Of a DNA stretch of 19,354 nt, positions 414 to 19,354 are shown piece after piece. Where the stretch lies: the IMG/VR virus record IMGVR_UViG_2695420523_000020, one strand, 5' to 3'. Within the stretch, counting starts at the first letter, position 1, and every line of letters begins with the position of its first letter. Both the position numbers and the translations under genes were made by a program. The stretch comes from a virus. Taxonomy: Duplodnaviria; Heunggongvirae; Uroviricota; Caudoviricetes. The notes under the pieces are model-generated. The model saw only the letters and a list, made by a program, of their open reading frames with translations, did no database searches and was not told where the DNA came from.

Positions 414-637
414 AACATTTAAGCTGATGACCACCGCGCTTTTTATTGACCATTTTGCACGCAAACTGGAAAACCTGGCGTCGTCATCTATTCTTAAAGG
501 GCAAGGCAACTAAGCCTGCATTAATGCCAACTTTTAGCGCACGGCTCTCTCCCAAGAGCCATTTCCCTGGACCGAATACAGGAATCGTACTCGGTCTTTT
601 TTTAATTGTATTTAAAATCAATCAGTTGCAAGCGTCT

Positions 638-2164: not shown

Positions 2165-2353
2165 TCACGAGGACAGAAGTTTCTCGCAATTAAAATTTAT
2201 CAGCTTTACTTTCTGCTCTCTGGACACGCCTGCTTCTTTTTTCCCTGAGAGCATTTTTTCGCATTCTGATTTCGTTAATTTAGATTTTGAATATCTTGTC
2301 CAGTTAGTAGGAGTGCCACCTTCTTTTTCAATAGTGGCAGTTATTTTATACAT
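2165..2353 (-). CDS. Small prophage protein, YdaC-like (62 aa)
   Basis: ATG at 2351-2353 preceded by a perfect SD GGAGGTG (complement of 2357-2363). Sits between xis and lar as ydaC does in Rac. The longer 86-aa ORF start at 2425 overlaps lar and lacks an SD. Confidence 0.55.
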   Translation of the reverse strand: MYKITATIEKEGGTPTNWTRYSKSKLTKSECEKMLSGKKEAGVSREQKVKLINFNCEKLLSS

Positions 2354-2596: not shown

Positions 2597-3406
2597 TTAT
2601 TCTTCTGAATTATCGATCACACTGTATTCCCCGGTTAATACAGAGGAGTCTGCCGGATCGATTGTCAGTGGTTCCTTTTCATCCATTGATACTGCACGCT
2701 GGATTTCAATTGAGACAGGCAGGTATTTAAACAGGCGACGAATAGCCGTTTTTTTTGCCATTTCTTCCCAGTGAGTTACCCATGGCCCGTTATTACCAGC
2801 CTTACTCTGGCTGCGCACCAGCTCAATCTGTTTGCGCGTCATAACTTCAAACTGAGTACCTCCGTCTTTCAGTCTTGCGACAGCATAGACGTGGGTAACC
2901 GGGGCATCTTCGTTTTCTCCTGGGCGGTGTATTAACTTTTCATCAAGGCCAAATTCGAAATTAAATTCGTCACCTTCACGGACAACACGGGCTGACAGGC
3001 TGGCGATTTGACCTGAACGGCGAGCCAGATCAATCATGCCGCGATAGCCAATGATTAGCTGAACGTTTTTTTTACCGCTCTTTTCGTTTTTATTACCAAA
3101 AGGCAGTAAATATGCATGACCGAGGGCGCTACCTGGCTCAAGTCCGAGCTGTGAACACTGTACGATTGCACTGACAAAACTCATAGTGTCACAGTTTCCT
3201 AACGCCGGAACTTTACGAATTTCTGTGGTGGCGATACGGATCATACGTTCAGCCGTCATATGGCGTGGAAGAGCTGCTGCCAGTTGCTCTTTCATTGATG
3301 GCTGGTTAATAAAACTAATCACGTCGTTATTTTTAATTGCTGCTGGTGCACGGTTTCCCTGAGTTTTTTGCAGATCGGCTTTTGCGATTGGTGGTTGCTT
3401 AGTCAT
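2597..3406 (-). CDS. recT: RecT single-strand annealing recombinase (269 aa)
   Basis: Translation from [23 protein letters not shown] matches E. coli Rac RecT as recalled. ATG at 3404-3406 sits a few nt from the recE stop (translational coupling). The ORF-track start at 3463 adds 19 residues not expected for RecT. Confidence 0.9.
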
Positions 3407-6146
3407 TTGCATATTCCTTAGCCCAGCGGGGCAGTGATAACGTCTTAATAGCTGGCCATTCATTGGTATTGAGGCAGTCAGCCAGGGTTCGCAGATTGCG
3501 GTGATATTCCAGCTGACCTGCCAGTTTTGCTTCTTCGCCCATCATGAAAATTTCAACCGGATAACGTCCGCATTCAATAGTTGTGCTGGCAACCAGAAAA
3601 ACGAAAGTTGGCTGCACTCCAAACTGTGCTTCATAACCGTCACTGTAGAATGCATCCTGAACGTGATAGCGGTAGTCGTAATAAGCGGTTTTGAATCGTT
3701 GAATATCCGCCGTAGTTTTCACGTCCATGATCCAGTGAAATTCAGGGATAATTTTGTCCGGACGGCACCGACACAAAATTCCTGTTTCAGGATCTTCCCA
3801 GTAAATTGATGATTCAGCGTGTCCGGCGCTTTCAACAAGCCATTGCCCCAGCGGCAAAGCCATAACGCTTTGATACATGAGTTCAATTTTCCGACCTTCT
3901 TCCGCAGTGATAACCGTTTTTCCTGTGCTTGCGCATTCCATCAGAAACGCTTTCTCTTCTTCTTTTCCGGCGTTTGTACGGCGGTTAAATTCAGGTGCTA
4001 CGATAAAGCGGTTACTGAATTCTTCCGGTTCAAGTACCCGGAAGTGGAAAGCGGTTCCTAAATCGAGCGTTTTTGTCTTTGTGTTGTCCACGGGGGCATT
4101 TTTACGCCACAAATACAGTGCCGGAGTATCAGCAATGTCATCGAGCTGAGACTTACTGACACCGGGACCTACGTGGTAATTCTCATTCGAAATTCCGTAA
4201 TAAATACCTGGCTCTATGTCTTCTACGATTACGGGATCTGCGACTTCGCCAGTTTCATCACTGCAATCGCGATGCGGATCGCTGCCAGCATTCTCATTGT
4301 GCGGATGTTCAGCGCCTTCCATTTCCTCCGGATCATTTTCCTTAGCTTCAACCTGATTCTCTTCATCGAATGTTTCCTGGTATGTTGCGTCGCCCATCAC
4401 CGCGCCACAATCAGGGCAGTTGCCGCCACTCCTCTGGCCGCAGGCGGTGCAGATCTTTTCCGGTTCCTGTTGCACTACTGGTTCAGGTTGTTTCGTTTCT
4501 GGCTCGTTTTGTTGCGTATTTGGGCTGTTCTGTTCCGCTTTCTGGTCGTTCTGTTCCGTTTCTGGCTGATTCTGGTACACAGAATCGCGGGTCTGGATCC
4601 CCTTAATCCATTTCGGATCATTCGGGTCGCTAATCCCTTCAACAAATTCTCCGCGAGAGGCAGCCAGCAATTTGTCGGCATCGACAGGATTTTTGGGCGG
4701 AATGGTTTTCCGGGCTTCATGGAGTTCTGCCCGCAGTTTCTGATATTTCGCATCAACAGAATTTACCTGTGACTGAGCATCCAGCGGCTGCGTGTCCTGA
4801 TGATGTTCAGTTGCATCCGGTTCCACTGTTTCAGCCGTTGCCTGTTTATCTGCCATTGCGCAAGATGGTTGCGGTTTTTCTTCACCATCGTGTTTTCCTT
4901 CTTCTGTTACACGCTGCGGCATCGGGGCAGAGGAACGACCGCAGGCAATATCCACGATTTCCGGATCAGGGTTGGCATGATCGGTTTCAATCAGCACCTT
5001 GTTCAGATATTCAGTGACATGCGCAGGGATAACCTCGATCCCAATTGGTGCTTCTTTTACGGACGCAACCACGATGGCGCGGGAATAATCCAGCCCGCCA
5101 GGCATGGTGATGAATTTGTCGCGGAAAACAGAAAAGGGCGGTTTATTTTCAGCGATAATTTCCTCGACACGTTTAGCGTGTGCCGGATGAAGGTTATAAA
5201 TATCCACATCCATTGAACGGGCCAGAACGCCGGTGGCTACATCTCGTGCGAGTGATGTCTTATCATGTTTGAATCCTTCACCACGATCGGTAATATTTCC
5301 GCCGCCAGCGTTAGCACCGGAAGGCGTACGGGTAATTCCTGAAACATAATTTCCGTTCTGCCATTCTTTTGTCAGCAGGCCCTGATCAAGGTAGTCAGTT
5401 TTCATCCAGGTGGAAATGAACTTGTCGAATTCAGCCGGGCTGATGCGATGATTTGCAGAGTGGGGGAATGCTTTCCCTACAGATTCAGCCAGGCGACTAA
5501 GGTGATAGTTCGTCAGTTTATCCAGTTCATGATGTGCGGCGCGCACAGCAGTAAGCAGGCTCTGAAGGTAACTGTCCTCTGTGTCCATCTCCATACGGAT
5601 CACGTTATTGCGTTGTTCTGGTGTGGCGTGATGCCGGTATTTTCCATCTTCATCCTTGCTGAAGAAGAAGAGGTGAAGGAAGCGATGAGTAAGGCTCAGA
5701 GTGGCGACGGGAATTTCACACTCAGAACAGTCATCGTCGCTGTCCGGGGATTCGCTTTTCTCCACATCATCCGGAATAGTTCCGTCCGGGTCATCGTTGT
5801 CATCGCCAGCAGTTGTGGCATCTTCACCGTTGATGTTGTCATTGAAGGATATAGCCATCATGGTGATGCCATCTTCCCCGCCTTTTTCATAGCGGTTGCA
5901 GAATTCAGTATCAAACACGCCTTCCGGTGGAAGGTCATTCACGACGGGGAAATTTACGCGAACGGGTTTTTTAAAGTCATCTTCATCGTAGCCAGCATCG
6001 TCAATAGCAACAGCACCACGGGATATGGCAATGGATAATTTTTTCGCTTCAGTCCAGTAGAAACCGCCTTTAATACCGAGACGTTTTCTTACTTTGTCAT
6101 TTTTTGCTTCGTAATACAGTGGGTAAACTTGTTTATCGGTGCTCAT
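3399..6146 (-). CDS. recE: RecE exonuclease VIII-like 5'-3' dsDNA exonuclease (915 aa)
   Basis: Very large acidic protein immediately upstream of recT. The central and C-terminal regions (e.g. [29 protein letters not shown]) match RecE as recalled; the N-terminal ~250 aa are divergent. SD gaggt precedes the ATG at 6146. Confidence 0.85.
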
Positions 6147-6218
6147 TGTTTTTTAACCTCAACTCAGATTAAAATTCGTTTGTTCAGTGAATAATCTTGC
6201 CGGATACACACTGTTCAT

Positions 6219-6243
6219 AGCCTGCGCCATACGCAGGCTATTT
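6219..6243 (-). other. Perfect 10-bp-stem hairpin between racC and recE
   Basis: atagcctgcg-ccata-cgcaggctat: perfect inverted repeat with a 5-nt loop. No T-run on the minus strand, so more likely an RNA processing or stability element than a terminator. Confidence 0.4.
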
Positions 6244-6246
6244 CTT

Positions 6247-6523
6247 TCAGATTTCACCTTTTAATTTCATTGCAATCAGAGTTGCCAGAAATTCGGCTTT
6301 TTTTTCTGCGGGCAGATTCTTTCCGATATGCACCAGGCACATTTTTTTGACACCTTCATCAAGTGTTTTTACGTTGCCTGATGGACCATCGATATCAACC
6401 ACAGTGAATGGGGGTTTCTTTATTTTCTGTTTTAATCACGTAGCCAATACGCTTTCCTTCCAGATTAACCTCGTGAACAATGTCATCGGTAGTTACAACA
6501 GTGGCTTCATAACTGGTAATCAT
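6247..6523 (-). pseudogene. racC: racC homologue interrupted by a +1 frameshift in a G5/C5 homopolymer
   Basis: ATG at 6521-6523 with SD AAGGAG. The frame reads MITSYEATVVTTDDIVHEVNLEGKRIGYVIKTENKETP then hits TGA. Shifting one base at the run 6410-6414 continues as PFTVVDIDGPSGNVKTLDEGVKKMCLVHIGKNLPAEKKAEFLATLIAMKLKGEI to a stop at 6247-6249, giving 91 codons in total. Confidence 0.6.
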
Positions 6524-6596
6524 TTTTTCTCCTTAATTAAGGTTGAGCGAATCCCTGCCATTGCTGGCATAAATTCAGTTTCGAATAGTCAATTAA

Positions 6597-6767
6597 TTAA
6601 AGTTCGTGTGCCATCTGGTCTTTTTCGGCACAAGCTTCACTGCAATATTTTCTCGGTTCGTCTTTTGATAAAGTCCCGTGCATGAAGTGAAGCATTCTTT
6701 CAATAGCTTTGCTTTCTTCAACGTCTTTTTTGCAAAGGTGGTAAGCACATTTTATTTTCTTAGTCAT
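6597..6767 (-). CDS. ydaE: YdaE-like small zinc-binding protein (56 aa)
   Basis: Translation [56 protein letters not shown], with Cys/His ligands. Its ATG overlaps the kilR stop (TGATG). Confidence 0.75.
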   Translation of the reverse strand: MTKKIKCAYHLCKKDVEESKAIERMLHFMHGTLSKDEPRKYCSEACAEKDQMAHEL

Positions 6768-6988
6768 CACCATGACTCCGCCTTTACAGGTAAACCATCA
6801 CGACCGAGGAAGACTTTAATCATGCAGTCAGTAATGCATGTTTTTGTAGTCAGGCTACGAATATAAAGTTTTCGCTTTTTAATATTGTTTGCCGAGGCGA
6901 TATATGTCCGGCCTTCATGAAGAACATAATCGCCAGGAGTCACACACTGACGTGGTATTTCATCAGTTCCGAAGTGATGAGCAATCAT
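6767..6988 (-). CDS. kilR: KilR cell-division inhibitor (73 aa)
   Basis: Translation [42 protein letters not shown]... is near-identical to Rac KilR as recalled. SD AAGGAGATAA upstream of the ATG at 6986-6988. Confidence 0.85.
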
Positions 6989-7034
6989 AATTATCTCCTT
7001 AATAAATTTCTCGTATTAAGAAAATTCCAGAAAA

Positions 7035-7589
7035 CTATTTAATACTCAGCAACTGCTCGACGGTCATATTTTTAATTGCGCTTCGGTTTACAAGAGTCCA
7101 GCCCTGTTTCTCCAGATAAAGGCGGAAAGTGTCCAGGGTACAGACGAGAGCGCCATCAGGAACGGTTTCAGTGAATTCGACGTTGCCGAATTTGTCGAAG
7201 CGAACAACCAGAGTGCGCCCATCGCCCGGAATGATTTTGTTTGTGGGAGTGGTATTATTCTGGCGTAGCTCTGCTTCCATGCGGTCGAACTCAGCGATGT
7301 AGGCCTCTTTGAATGCAGCGGCTTTTTTGCCAGTGAAACCCATCACCAGGAAAACGAAGCCGTTTTTGGTGATTTGGTACATTGGGAGTTTGCGCCCGGT
7401 TGAGTCGGTGTATTCACTTGGCTTAAAATTAAGCTCAGTGAATTCTGAGGAACATTCCAGAGCTTCAATTTTTTGAATGACGTTTTTATGCAGCTTGCGG
7501 AAAAACTCTGCAACTGCAACAGACGTAGTGACAGCACGACCATTTTCGATGGTTACGTCAGGGTGAGAAAGGGTAGGGATAGTAGCCAT
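7035..7589 (-). CDS. Rha-family phage regulatory protein (184 aa from the internal ATG; the ORF is open to 7883)
   Basis: Rha-like conserved block VTIENGRAVTTSVAVAEFFRKLHKNVIQKIEAL...KLPMYQITKNGFVFLVMGFTGKKAAAFKEAYIAEFDRME. Start chosen at ATG 7587-7589 (SD gagg), so the domain begins near residue 10 as in typical Rha proteins. The upstream in-frame 98 codons contain a terminator-like hairpin and non-protein-like composition. Confidence 0.6.
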   Translation of the reverse strand: MATIPTLSHPDVTIENGRAVTTSVAVAEFFRKLHKNVIQKIEALECSSEFTELNFKPSEYTDSTGRKLPMYQITKNGFVFLVMGFTGKKAAAFKEAYIAEFDRMEAELRQNNTTPTNKIIPGDGRTLVVRFDKFGNVEFTETVPDGALVCTLDTFRLYLEKQGWTLVNRSAIKNMTVEQLLSIK

Positions 7590-7755
7590 GATGGCAGCCT
7601 CTAGTGATAAGTTGGTAAACTCACCACCGGAGGTGCAAATCTCATGGGTGGTGAGACGTACAGGGTTTGCACTACCGGTCACTAGAGAATCCGGCCCGCC
7701 CGAAAACGGCCCCATACGCCCCACCATAATCTGAATGTGGCTGCGCTTTACGCAT

Positions 7756-7778
7756 AAAAAAACCGCTTTGGCGCGGTT
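7756..7778 (-). terminator. Hairpin plus T7 on the minus strand
   Basis: Minus strand reads aaccgc-gccaaa-gcggtt followed by TTTTTTT (plus-strand A-run 7756-7762). It lies inside the putative N-terminal extension of the Rha ORF. Confidence 0.4.
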
Positions 7779-8061
7779 ATGCGCTCTAGTGATCATCGGG
7801 GTGCAAATCCCGGCACCCGTTTTATGAGGTGCAGGTGCACTATAATTCCACCCGTTCTGGTTTTCAATAGCTACATTCAACATTTTCTCTCACCTTTCAT
7901 CACTGAAGTGAACTTTGTTGATGCGGTGCCTGGTGCCTCCAGGTGACGTTAACCAGTTAACAATTAACGCCGGATATTTCACCCATAACTCTGCTACGAA
8001 GGACAATAGCTTTTTAACTGTTCCGCGTGCGCTTAGCCGCATTCACCGCATCACAAAATTC

Positions 8062-15735: not shown

Positions 15736-15864
15736 ATTCATTCCGTATGGGAATTCCCATATCGGGCAAAAACGGTTTGCTGTAAAGCGAGAGTTAAGTA
15801 GAATTGCTGCGGGTGCTTGAGGCTGTCTGCCTCGGGCATGCCGCCGTAAGGCAGACAGAGAAAA

Positions 15865-15935
15865 GCCCCAGTTAACATTACGCGTCCGGCAAGACGCTTA
15901 ACATTAATCTGAGGCCATATCTATGCGACACATAG
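15865..15935 (-). ncRNA. Sok-like antisense RNA (approximate position)
   Basis: Inferred from hok/sok architecture: antisense to the hok leader around the mok-like start. Possible minus-strand promoter TTGACC-17-CTAATC inside the mok/hok leader. Exact ends not determinable from sequence alone. Confidence 0.3.
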
Positions 15936-15982
15936 AGATTAGCCTCTTACGGACCGAAAGGTCAAGGAGAAGCAGGCTATGA
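15923..15982 (+). CDS. mok-like leader ORF (19 codons) overlapping the hok start
   Basis: ATG at 15923; its stop TGA overlaps the hok ATG (ATGA). Much shorter than plasmid R1 mok. Confidence 0.35.
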   Translation: MRHIEISLLRTERSRRSRL

Positions 15983-18169: not shown

Positions 18170-18245
18170 GGCCCTTTAGCTCAGTGGTGAGAGCGAGCGA
18201 CTCATAATCGCCAGGTCGCTGGTTCAAATCCAGCAAGGGCCACCA
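18170..18245 (+). tRNA. tRNA with CAU anticodon (Ile2 ileX/ileZ-like, or Met)
   Basis: 7-bp acceptor stem ggccctt/aagggcc, D-arm TAGCTCAGTGG, anticodon loop CTCATAA, T-loop GGTTCAAATCC, encoded CCA end. Close to E. coli ileX as recalled. Confidence 0.85.
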
Positions 18246-18345
18246 TCACAAACCGCCATTAGCTTATCAGGAAGAGCAGACGACACCATAACAGGGTTGT
18301 TGGTGCGGGGGCGGGTCCCCGATGGCGGTCCATTATCGGTATTCT

Positions 18346-18422
18346 GCGTTGTTAGCTCAGCCGGACAGAGCAATTGCCTTCTAAGCAATCGGTCAGTGGT
18401 TCGACTCCACTACAACGCGCCA
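18346..18422 (+). tRNA. tRNA-Arg (anticodon UCU, reads AGA)
   Basis: Acceptor stem gcgttgt/acaacgc, anticodon stem attgc/gcaat with loop CTTCTAA (UCU), T-arm agtggTTCGACTccact, encoded CCA. Confidence 0.85.
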
Positions 18423-19187: not shown

Positions 19188-19324
19188 TTTTTTTGTTTGC
19201 TGTTTATTAAAAACACTTCTGCATGGTGAATCCCCCTGTGCGGAGGGGCGATCAGCAACCAGGTATATGGGATAATCGCGGATTCAGGTGCTGATACTGA
19301 ATTCACCGGGAGGCACCCGGCACC

Positions 19325-19354
19325 ATGCAAGAAAAAGAATGTGCATGCAAACAT
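19325..19354 (+). CDS. 5' end of an unidentified gene, truncated by the window edge
   Basis: SD GGGAGG 8 nt upstream of ATG 19325 (MQEKECACKH...). Only 10 codons are visible. Confidence 0.3.
   Translation, partial: MQEKECACKH

Follow-up and report, generated by a model that had tools for sequence, protein, structure and literature searches.

racC in a prophage with Rac-type gene order is very probably a pseudogene made by an inherited one-base insertion

Introduction

The racC gene of the prophage described here starts with an ordinary ribosome-binding site and ATG, and its reading frame is interrupted at a run of five cytosines. This raises the question of whether the interruption is a genuine inactivating mutation, a homopolymer sequencing error or a site of slippage-prone expression, all three of which had been offered in a sequence-only reading of this DNA. 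The window, by which we mean the whole stretch of 19,354 nucleotides that was analysed (IMG/VR record IMGVR_UViG_2695420523_000020), carries racC on the minus strand at 6247-6523.

The question bears on retron toxin-antitoxin defense. RacC, a protein of 91 amino acids, was the strongest blocker of the toxin RcaT of retron-Sen2 and also blocked RcaT of retron-Eco9, and the block was seen even without inducer; the retron is set off by RecE through degradation of msDNA, and racC and recE are described as a linked pair of blocker and trigger (bioRxiv 10.1101/2020.06.22.160242).

Results

The features of the locus are compiled in Table 1. The Shine-Dalgarno sequence was kept in all of the relatives aligned (alignment A1) and, together with the ATG, bears out the good start described earlier for this frame. 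The termination after 38 sensible codons was likewise exact: the RacC part of the truncated frame reads MITSYEATVVTTDDIVHEVNLEGKRIGYVIKTENKETP, and the C5 run is followed by the out-of-frame codons ATT CAC TGT GGT and then by TGA. The run itself, reported as ggggg on the plus strand, was found where it had been placed. In the intact gene, a C4 run occupies nt 110-113, and the fifth C shifts the frame after codon 38. Removal of one C gave a 276-nt open reading frame of 91 codons ending at 6247, precisely the protein that a one-base shift had been said to restore. The 3' frame appears in the ORF listing as a GTG-started ORF of 51 aa at 6247..6402.

Table 1. Features of the racC locus, its surroundings and RacC alleles (positions in the window unless RacC residues are given).
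Feature	Position	Strand	Description
Shine-Dalgarno AAGGAG	6529..6534	-	5 nt 5' of the racC ATG (6523-6521); read from sequence
Truncated racC frame	6395..6523	-	From ATG, 38 RacC codons, IHCG and TGA (6397-6395); 42 aa
C5 homopolymer	6410..6414	-	GGGGG on plus strand; one-base insertion relative to ancestral C4
Out-of-frame rest of racC	6247..6408	-	Codons 39-91 (FTVVDIDG...KLKGEI) and TGA (6249-6247)
recE (exodeoxyribonuclease VIII)	3399..6146	-	Intact ORF, 915 aa; named recE in relatives
ydaE	6597-6767/6773		ORF
kilR	6767-6988		ORF
rha	7035-7883		ORF
SraC/RyeA with SdsR/RyeB	463-607		Left end, next to yebY; Rfam above gathering threshold
RalA antitoxin RNA	2169-2347		Rfam above gathering threshold
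C4 antisense RNA and isrK	7644-7832		Inside 5' part of rha; Rfam above gathering threshold
sok (hokD locus)	15811-15981		Rfam above gathering threshold
Two tRNAs	18170-18419		Rfam above gathering threshold
STnc100	19192-19348		Rfam above gathering threshold
RacC breakpoints, A3C4 tract	residues 35-38		13 representatives
RacC breakpoints, A7 run	residues 54-63		12 representatives
RacC breakpoints, A8 run	residues 74-77		22 representatives
RacC breakpoints, T3 run	residue 78		15 representatives
Compensated alleles P0020, P0027, P0038, P0044, P0045, P0068, P0070, P0096	equivalent to 6298-6349		Out-of-frame peptide, e.g. NVPGAYRKESARRKK or CWCISERICPQKK

The restored protein was identical to K-12 RacC at 90 of 91 positions, with S4N as the sole difference, and showed no difference from the O157-type intact copy or from a common intact allele, which is found on at least 1000 contigs. 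It matched NCBIfam NF007306 (PRK09790) over positions 1-91 of 91 with 205 bits (cut-off, 171) and phrog_4778 across the same 1-91 of 91, so that its identification as a racC homologue is upheld. The 42-aa product as encoded matched only positions 1-39 of 91 in both profiles, and its 80 bits fell below the cut-off of 171. Judged from these matches, the locus is a RacC gene by descent, but no intact member of the family. The family itself comprised 121 matches, which were confined to Escherichia and Shigella and had a typical length of 91 aa. A sub-threshold Pfam match of the restored protein to DUF2969 (E 0.005; 17.6 bits; cut-off, 25) was dropped, and a Pfam search with either racC fragment returned no family. 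PP818812.1, named Actinobacillus phage vB_Apl-pPE4, has a racC-ydaE region 94.9% identical to the E. coli sequence of the window, and this host assignment is unexpected because the family is otherwise found in Escherichia and Shigella only.

The gene order of the window is rha-kilR-ydaE-racC-recE-recT, as in the annotated relatives, and racC thus lies between ydaE and recE, as it does in the Rac-type early-left operon kilR-ydaE-racC-recE-recT. The RecE product carries the Pfam domains Exonuc_VIII and DUF3799. Elsewhere, RecE has a length of 1023 aa (L017) or 717 aa (L019); positions 5399-6138 of the window, within recE, had no blastn match to the fetched part of K-12 and positions 5096-5398 were only 85% identical to it, indicating that RecE varies greatly in its N-terminal part.

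Intact racC is, from its pattern of substitution, a real gene under coding constraint. Among intact homologues, dN/dS (Nei-Gojobori) was approximately 0.1-0.3 for codons 1-58, with weaker constraint for codons 59-91, and the invariant and nearly invariant columns of a 29-sequence protein alignment were concentrated in residues 1-58. The frame breaks exactly within the stretch K35-E36-T37-P38-F39-T40-V41-V42-D43, in which every residue is invariant or nearly so. An AlphaFold2 model of RacC (mean pLDDT, 78.4; pTM, 0.65) presents one small domain with predicted strands at residues 16-21, 24-31, 39-43 and 48-51 and predicted helices at 54-69 and 72-87. In this model, the 42-aa product would keep the disordered or low-confidence N-terminus and the first β-hairpin only, with the break removing two of the four strands (39-43 and 48-51) and both helices; owing to this loss, the product is expected to be non-functional. 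The loss of RacC function is therefore to be expected from the predicted structure together with the conservation. When the model was compared with the PDB by Foldseek, nothing matched at E ≤ 0.001, and the best partial match, YkuJ (2ffg; E 0.73, TM 0.42 over 51 columns), was not taken as the fold.

The model and the alignment also bear on the idea that the 42-aa product and a 51-aa peptide reinitiated at GTG 6402 are functional jointly, as the two parts of a split gene. The GTG (6402-6400) is located 2 nt upstream of the TGA that ends the first frame, a geometry that can allow termination-reinitiation, and both pieces were annotated by one gene caller in one of the other sequences with the allele (L010). 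However, no Shine-Dalgarno sequence precedes the GTG, the break would separate strands 2 and 3 of the predicted β-sheet, the conserved motif loses F39 and T40, and the locus is a pseudogene according to PGAP, leaving this arrangement with next to no probability.

To place the tract length in its evolutionary context, we compared relatives of the locus. The K-12 and O157-type copies had C4 and an uninterrupted frame (alignment A1), and four diverged intact homologues with 71-82% protein identity all had C4 at nt 110-113. In the same alignment, the window and three complete genomes (O45:H2 FWSEC0003, O111:H8 8E and 2014C-3061) had C5 with four linked SNPs, forming one haplotype. Of the 1460 complete E. 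coli genomes matching a 65-mer with C5, 3 matched it exactly, and of the 1729 matching a 64-mer with C4, 1402 did so. C4 being the state of the K-12 and O157-type copies and of all four diverged homologues, and prevailing by 1402 genomes to 3, C5 is a derived single-base insertion. The comparison of homopolymer length that had been proposed earlier hence returned C4 in intact relatives and a rare, derived C5, and the reading of the lesion as a genuine inactivating mutation gains support from the confinement of C5 to one four-SNP haplotype. It had also been considered that homologues might naturally end at the same position; none of the diverged homologues does, and the only 42-aa products on record come from the present allele.

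The recurrence of the allele was then decisive for the sequencing-error reading, in which the true run would be C4 and racC intact. The 277-nt allele was identical in ten other independent sequences (L001, L007 and L009-L016), namely, one complete genome (O45:H2 FWSEC0003, L001), four NCBI drafts (GCA_000948555.1, GCA_002542315.1, GCA_000249875.2 and GCA_002460635.1) and five Logan assemblies from separate SRA runs (SRR30307468, SRR22114425, SRR11802354, SRR33486563 and SRR094977). When ten loci encoding the 42-aa product were fetched, nine were identical over the 277 nt, and the tenth, that of 2014C-3061 (L008), had C5 plus an A8-to-A9 change. The exact 42-aa product was recorded on 82 contigs across NCBI, ENA and Logan, for example, in strain DEC8E, and was listed in 99 index blocks. 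Between the carriers and the window, ~3.1 kb of flank had 5-7 substitutions, and the carriers are thus distinct genomes with an inherited lesion in common. The 401-nt region was 100% identical to that of O111:H8 strain 8E. The window as a whole was absent from the complete-genome set, where the best match had a coverage of 78% and an identity of 97.4%, so that it represents an additional independent sequence. In the phage collection, six records had the region, none of them more than 97.3% identical to the C5 haplotype of the window.

Homopolymer indels are a frequent residual error of long-read assemblies, and the A8 run of racC varies in close relatives (A9 in 2014C-3061 and A7 in 61_150228), where some of the differences could be errors. 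For the C5 run, however, complete genomes, drafts and read-run assemblies all carry the allele, ten of the other sequences agree at 277 of 277 nt including the four linked SNPs, five of these come from separate read runs, the 42-aa product recurs across three archives, and a random error would not recur on one haplotype only while 1402 genomes read C4. The error reading was therefore rejected as hardly conceivable: the ten identical sequences are joined by two further complete genomes, and every other carrier of the allele has five Cs where a four-base run would have pointed to misassembly. With regard to the A8 run, A9 occurs on top of C5 in 2014C-3061 (L002/L006) and A7 occurs with C4 in 61_150228 (L005), which is likewise annotated as frameshifted, both at the equivalent of window 6299-6306; these differences may be genuine, or they may be homopolymer errors from long reads.

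Taken together, the lesion is very probably a real and heritable one-base insertion that has turned racC into a pseudogene. The C5 allele is labelled 'hypothetical protein, frameshifted' by PGAP, and a racC pseudogene of this sort is ordinary and already on public record. The A9 for A8 in 2014C-3061 was the only further lesion found among the carriers, indicating that the pseudogene is young, and the inactivity of RacC is without corroboration from decay of the pseudogene.

The homopolymers of racC were also found to be broken in other alleles. In the tract GAAACCCC alone, public data contain three indel alleles of independent origin, each confirmed in the DNA sequence: +C (the window), -C (P0108) and -A (P0110). 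In a breakpoint survey of 120 cluster representatives of the RacC family, in which cluster counts over-represent variants and some of the variants may be errors, 45 of the 120 reached the C-terminus and the others were mostly broken at homopolymers (Table 1). This pattern fits ordinary slipped-strand mutation in a small A/T-rich gene with several runs. Furthermore, in 8 of the 45 full-length alleles (90-94 aa), the protein is out of frame precisely from the A7 run to the A8 run (Table 1); these are compensating double frameshifts that return the C-terminus to frame. A RacC variant of 81 aa ending ...AEF-WQL* was also observed in 15 cluster representatives with 58-91% identity to the query (members include P0035-P0037, P0039, P0043, P0047, P0065, P0075, P0086 and P0106; equivalent to window ~6287-6292). 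The loss of one base from the TTT run at codon 78 would account for its tail, and the variant could be an old lineage with a short C-terminus or a recurrent event.

The survey is relevant to the question of whether the inactivation of RacC was positively selected, for example, because RacC is costly or clashes with a resident defense system, rather than neutral. Such an adaptive loss would be in keeping with the many independent ways in which racC is broken in public data while the neighbouring recE is intact and with the persistence of the C5 allele across strains of different serotypes. However, the recurrent breaks are all in homopolymers, where mutation bias by itself would put them, the intact alleles are far commoner (1402 to 3) and under purifying selection, and the eight compensating double frameshifts suggest selection for keeping the frame; we thus consider adaptive loss very unlikely. 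Phase variation likewise found no support. The tract has a length of only 5 nt, all 13 other sequences with the allele had C5, where on and off lengths would be expected on the same background, and no C4 copy of the same 401-nt haplotype was found among complete genomes.

The remaining question was whether full-length RacC could be produced from the C5 allele by ribosomal frameshifting. In vitro, the native tRNAPro(UGG) shifts into the +1 frame fastest and furthest on CCC-A among the CCC-N contexts, and CCC-C at codon 2 gave ~1% +1 shift in vivo (PMC4519876). The window has CCC-A at this point, where tRNAPro(UGG) can re-pair with CCA in the +1 frame, and a slip at ACC-CCC-A regenerates exactly the wild-type T37-P38-F39. 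A programmed or selected +1 site, at which a shift of tRNAPro from CCC to CCA would supply regulated, low-level full-length RacC, could draw on this most shift-prone CCC-N context (PMC4519876), and low levels of RacC might matter, since RcaT was blocked even when RacC was not induced (10.1101/2020.06.22.160242). Nevertheless, the split frame is not conserved, all of the diverged homologues having C4 and one continuous frame, and C5 is rare and restricted to a single haplotype, with 3 complete genomes set against 1402 with C4. No Shine-Dalgarno-like element lies upstream, where the sequence is AAUAAAGAAA; the A site is occupied by AUU, a common codon at which no pause is expected, in place of a stop or rare codon, and the 0-frame stop comes four codons further on. 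The high rates reported in PMC4519876 concern the second codon, there called the most shift-prone position, and average non-programmed +1 rates are <0.003%. A programmed site is, therefore, very improbable indeed.

As for the earlier suggestion of slippage-prone expression, a programmed device is unsupported, and what stands is that CCC-A is a known +1-slippery context. As CCC-A most readily shifts to +1 in vitro, a small amount of full-length RacC could be made, and a leak at the CCC-A of the window is possible but minor. It is decidedly unlikely that the C5 allele would be leaky rather than null, with spontaneous +1 slippage giving trace wild-type RacC whose anti-retron activity is tolerated or favoured. 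If that were true, the allele would be a naturally attenuated blocker beside an intact RecE trigger.

In the sequence surrounding racC, an upstream ATG at 6570 on the minus strand was observed to open a 16-codon ORF, MPAMAGIRSTLIKEKK, whose TGA overlaps the racC ATG (window 6520-6570). In K-12, one extra C in the spacer between the Shine-Dalgarno sequence and the ATG puts this upstream ATG in frame with racC, which accounts for the 107-aa RacC calls in databases and also for the K-12 region having the same 401-nt length despite its C4. A perfect 10-bp inverted repeat, ATAGCCTGCG...CGCAGGCTAT, is present at 6217-6241 between the racC stop and the recE start; because its T-rich tail is on the plus strand, the hairpin is terminator-like only for plus-strand (antisense) transcription. 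It was the only notable match in a promoter and terminator scan of 6050-7100, in which sites were no more numerous than in shuffled controls, and Rfam at gathering thresholds returned no RNA family within 6100-6700.

Discussion

This study indicates that the interrupted racC of the window is very likely the product of an inherited mutation. The events may have proceeded as follows. A single C would have been inserted into the C4 run at nt 110-113, most likely by slipped-strand mispairing at replication, and the resulting C5 would have shifted the frame after codon 38 and brought in a stop four codons later. The insertion appears to have arisen once, on one haplotype, and the C5 allele would then have been inherited, or carried along by the prophage, in E. 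coli lineages of the Shiga-toxin type, such as O111:H8 and O45:H2, with its fixation probably being neutral rather than selected.

With an intact recE beside a broken racC, the prophage retains the trigger of the retron pair but not its blocker. We infer that the anti-RcaT activity has been lost, since the third and fourth strands and both helices of the predicted fold are removed. Whether a trigger without a blocker has consequences would turn on the presence of an RcaT-type retron in the host. In itself, the lesion matters little, being a further case of a small accessory prophage gene frameshifted at a homopolymer, and its interest is modest: it marks a prophage lineage with the RecE trigger but without the RacC blocker, alongside many other racC alleles broken at homopolymers. 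This pattern of broken racC alleles could help in asking whether hosts that lack RcaT-type retrons can do without RacC.

Among the closest known counterparts are the RefSeq pseudogenes CCU02_RS16180 of O45:H2 FWSEC0003 and C6992_RS07475 of 2014C-3061, which have the same C5 allele as the window. The former (L001) is exactly the 277 nt of the window with flanks a few substitutions apart, and the latter has the additional A8-to-A9 change, which the window lacks. In FWSEC0003, the rha-kilR-ydaE-racC-recE module (L001, 320-1307) was observed next to an nleC effector gene, itself frameshifted, and not in the left-hand context of the window, indicating that the module has moved between prophage backbones.

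With respect to frameshifting, the non-programmed +1 sites of PMC4519876 resemble the ACC-CCC-A of the window in that a slip of P-site tRNAPro(UGG) from CCC onto CCA would bring back the wild-type frame and sequence, but the CCC-A of the window is at internal codon 38, without a stimulator or conservation and with no sign of its use, whereas theirs is at codon 2. Finally, RacC of the K-12 Rac prophage (b1351) shares with the restored gene its 91-codon length, its Shine-Dalgarno sequence and ATG and the order kilR-ydaE-racC-recE-recT. The two prophages differ in that K-12 racC has C4 and 91 codons, whereas that of the window has C5 and a 42-aa product, and in that RecE is 866 aa long in K-12 and 915 aa in the window. 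They also differ in integration site, as evidenced by SraC/RyeA and SdsR/RyeB next to yebY at the left end: the window prophage adjoins yebY/ryeA-ryeB, and K-12 Rac resides at a different site.
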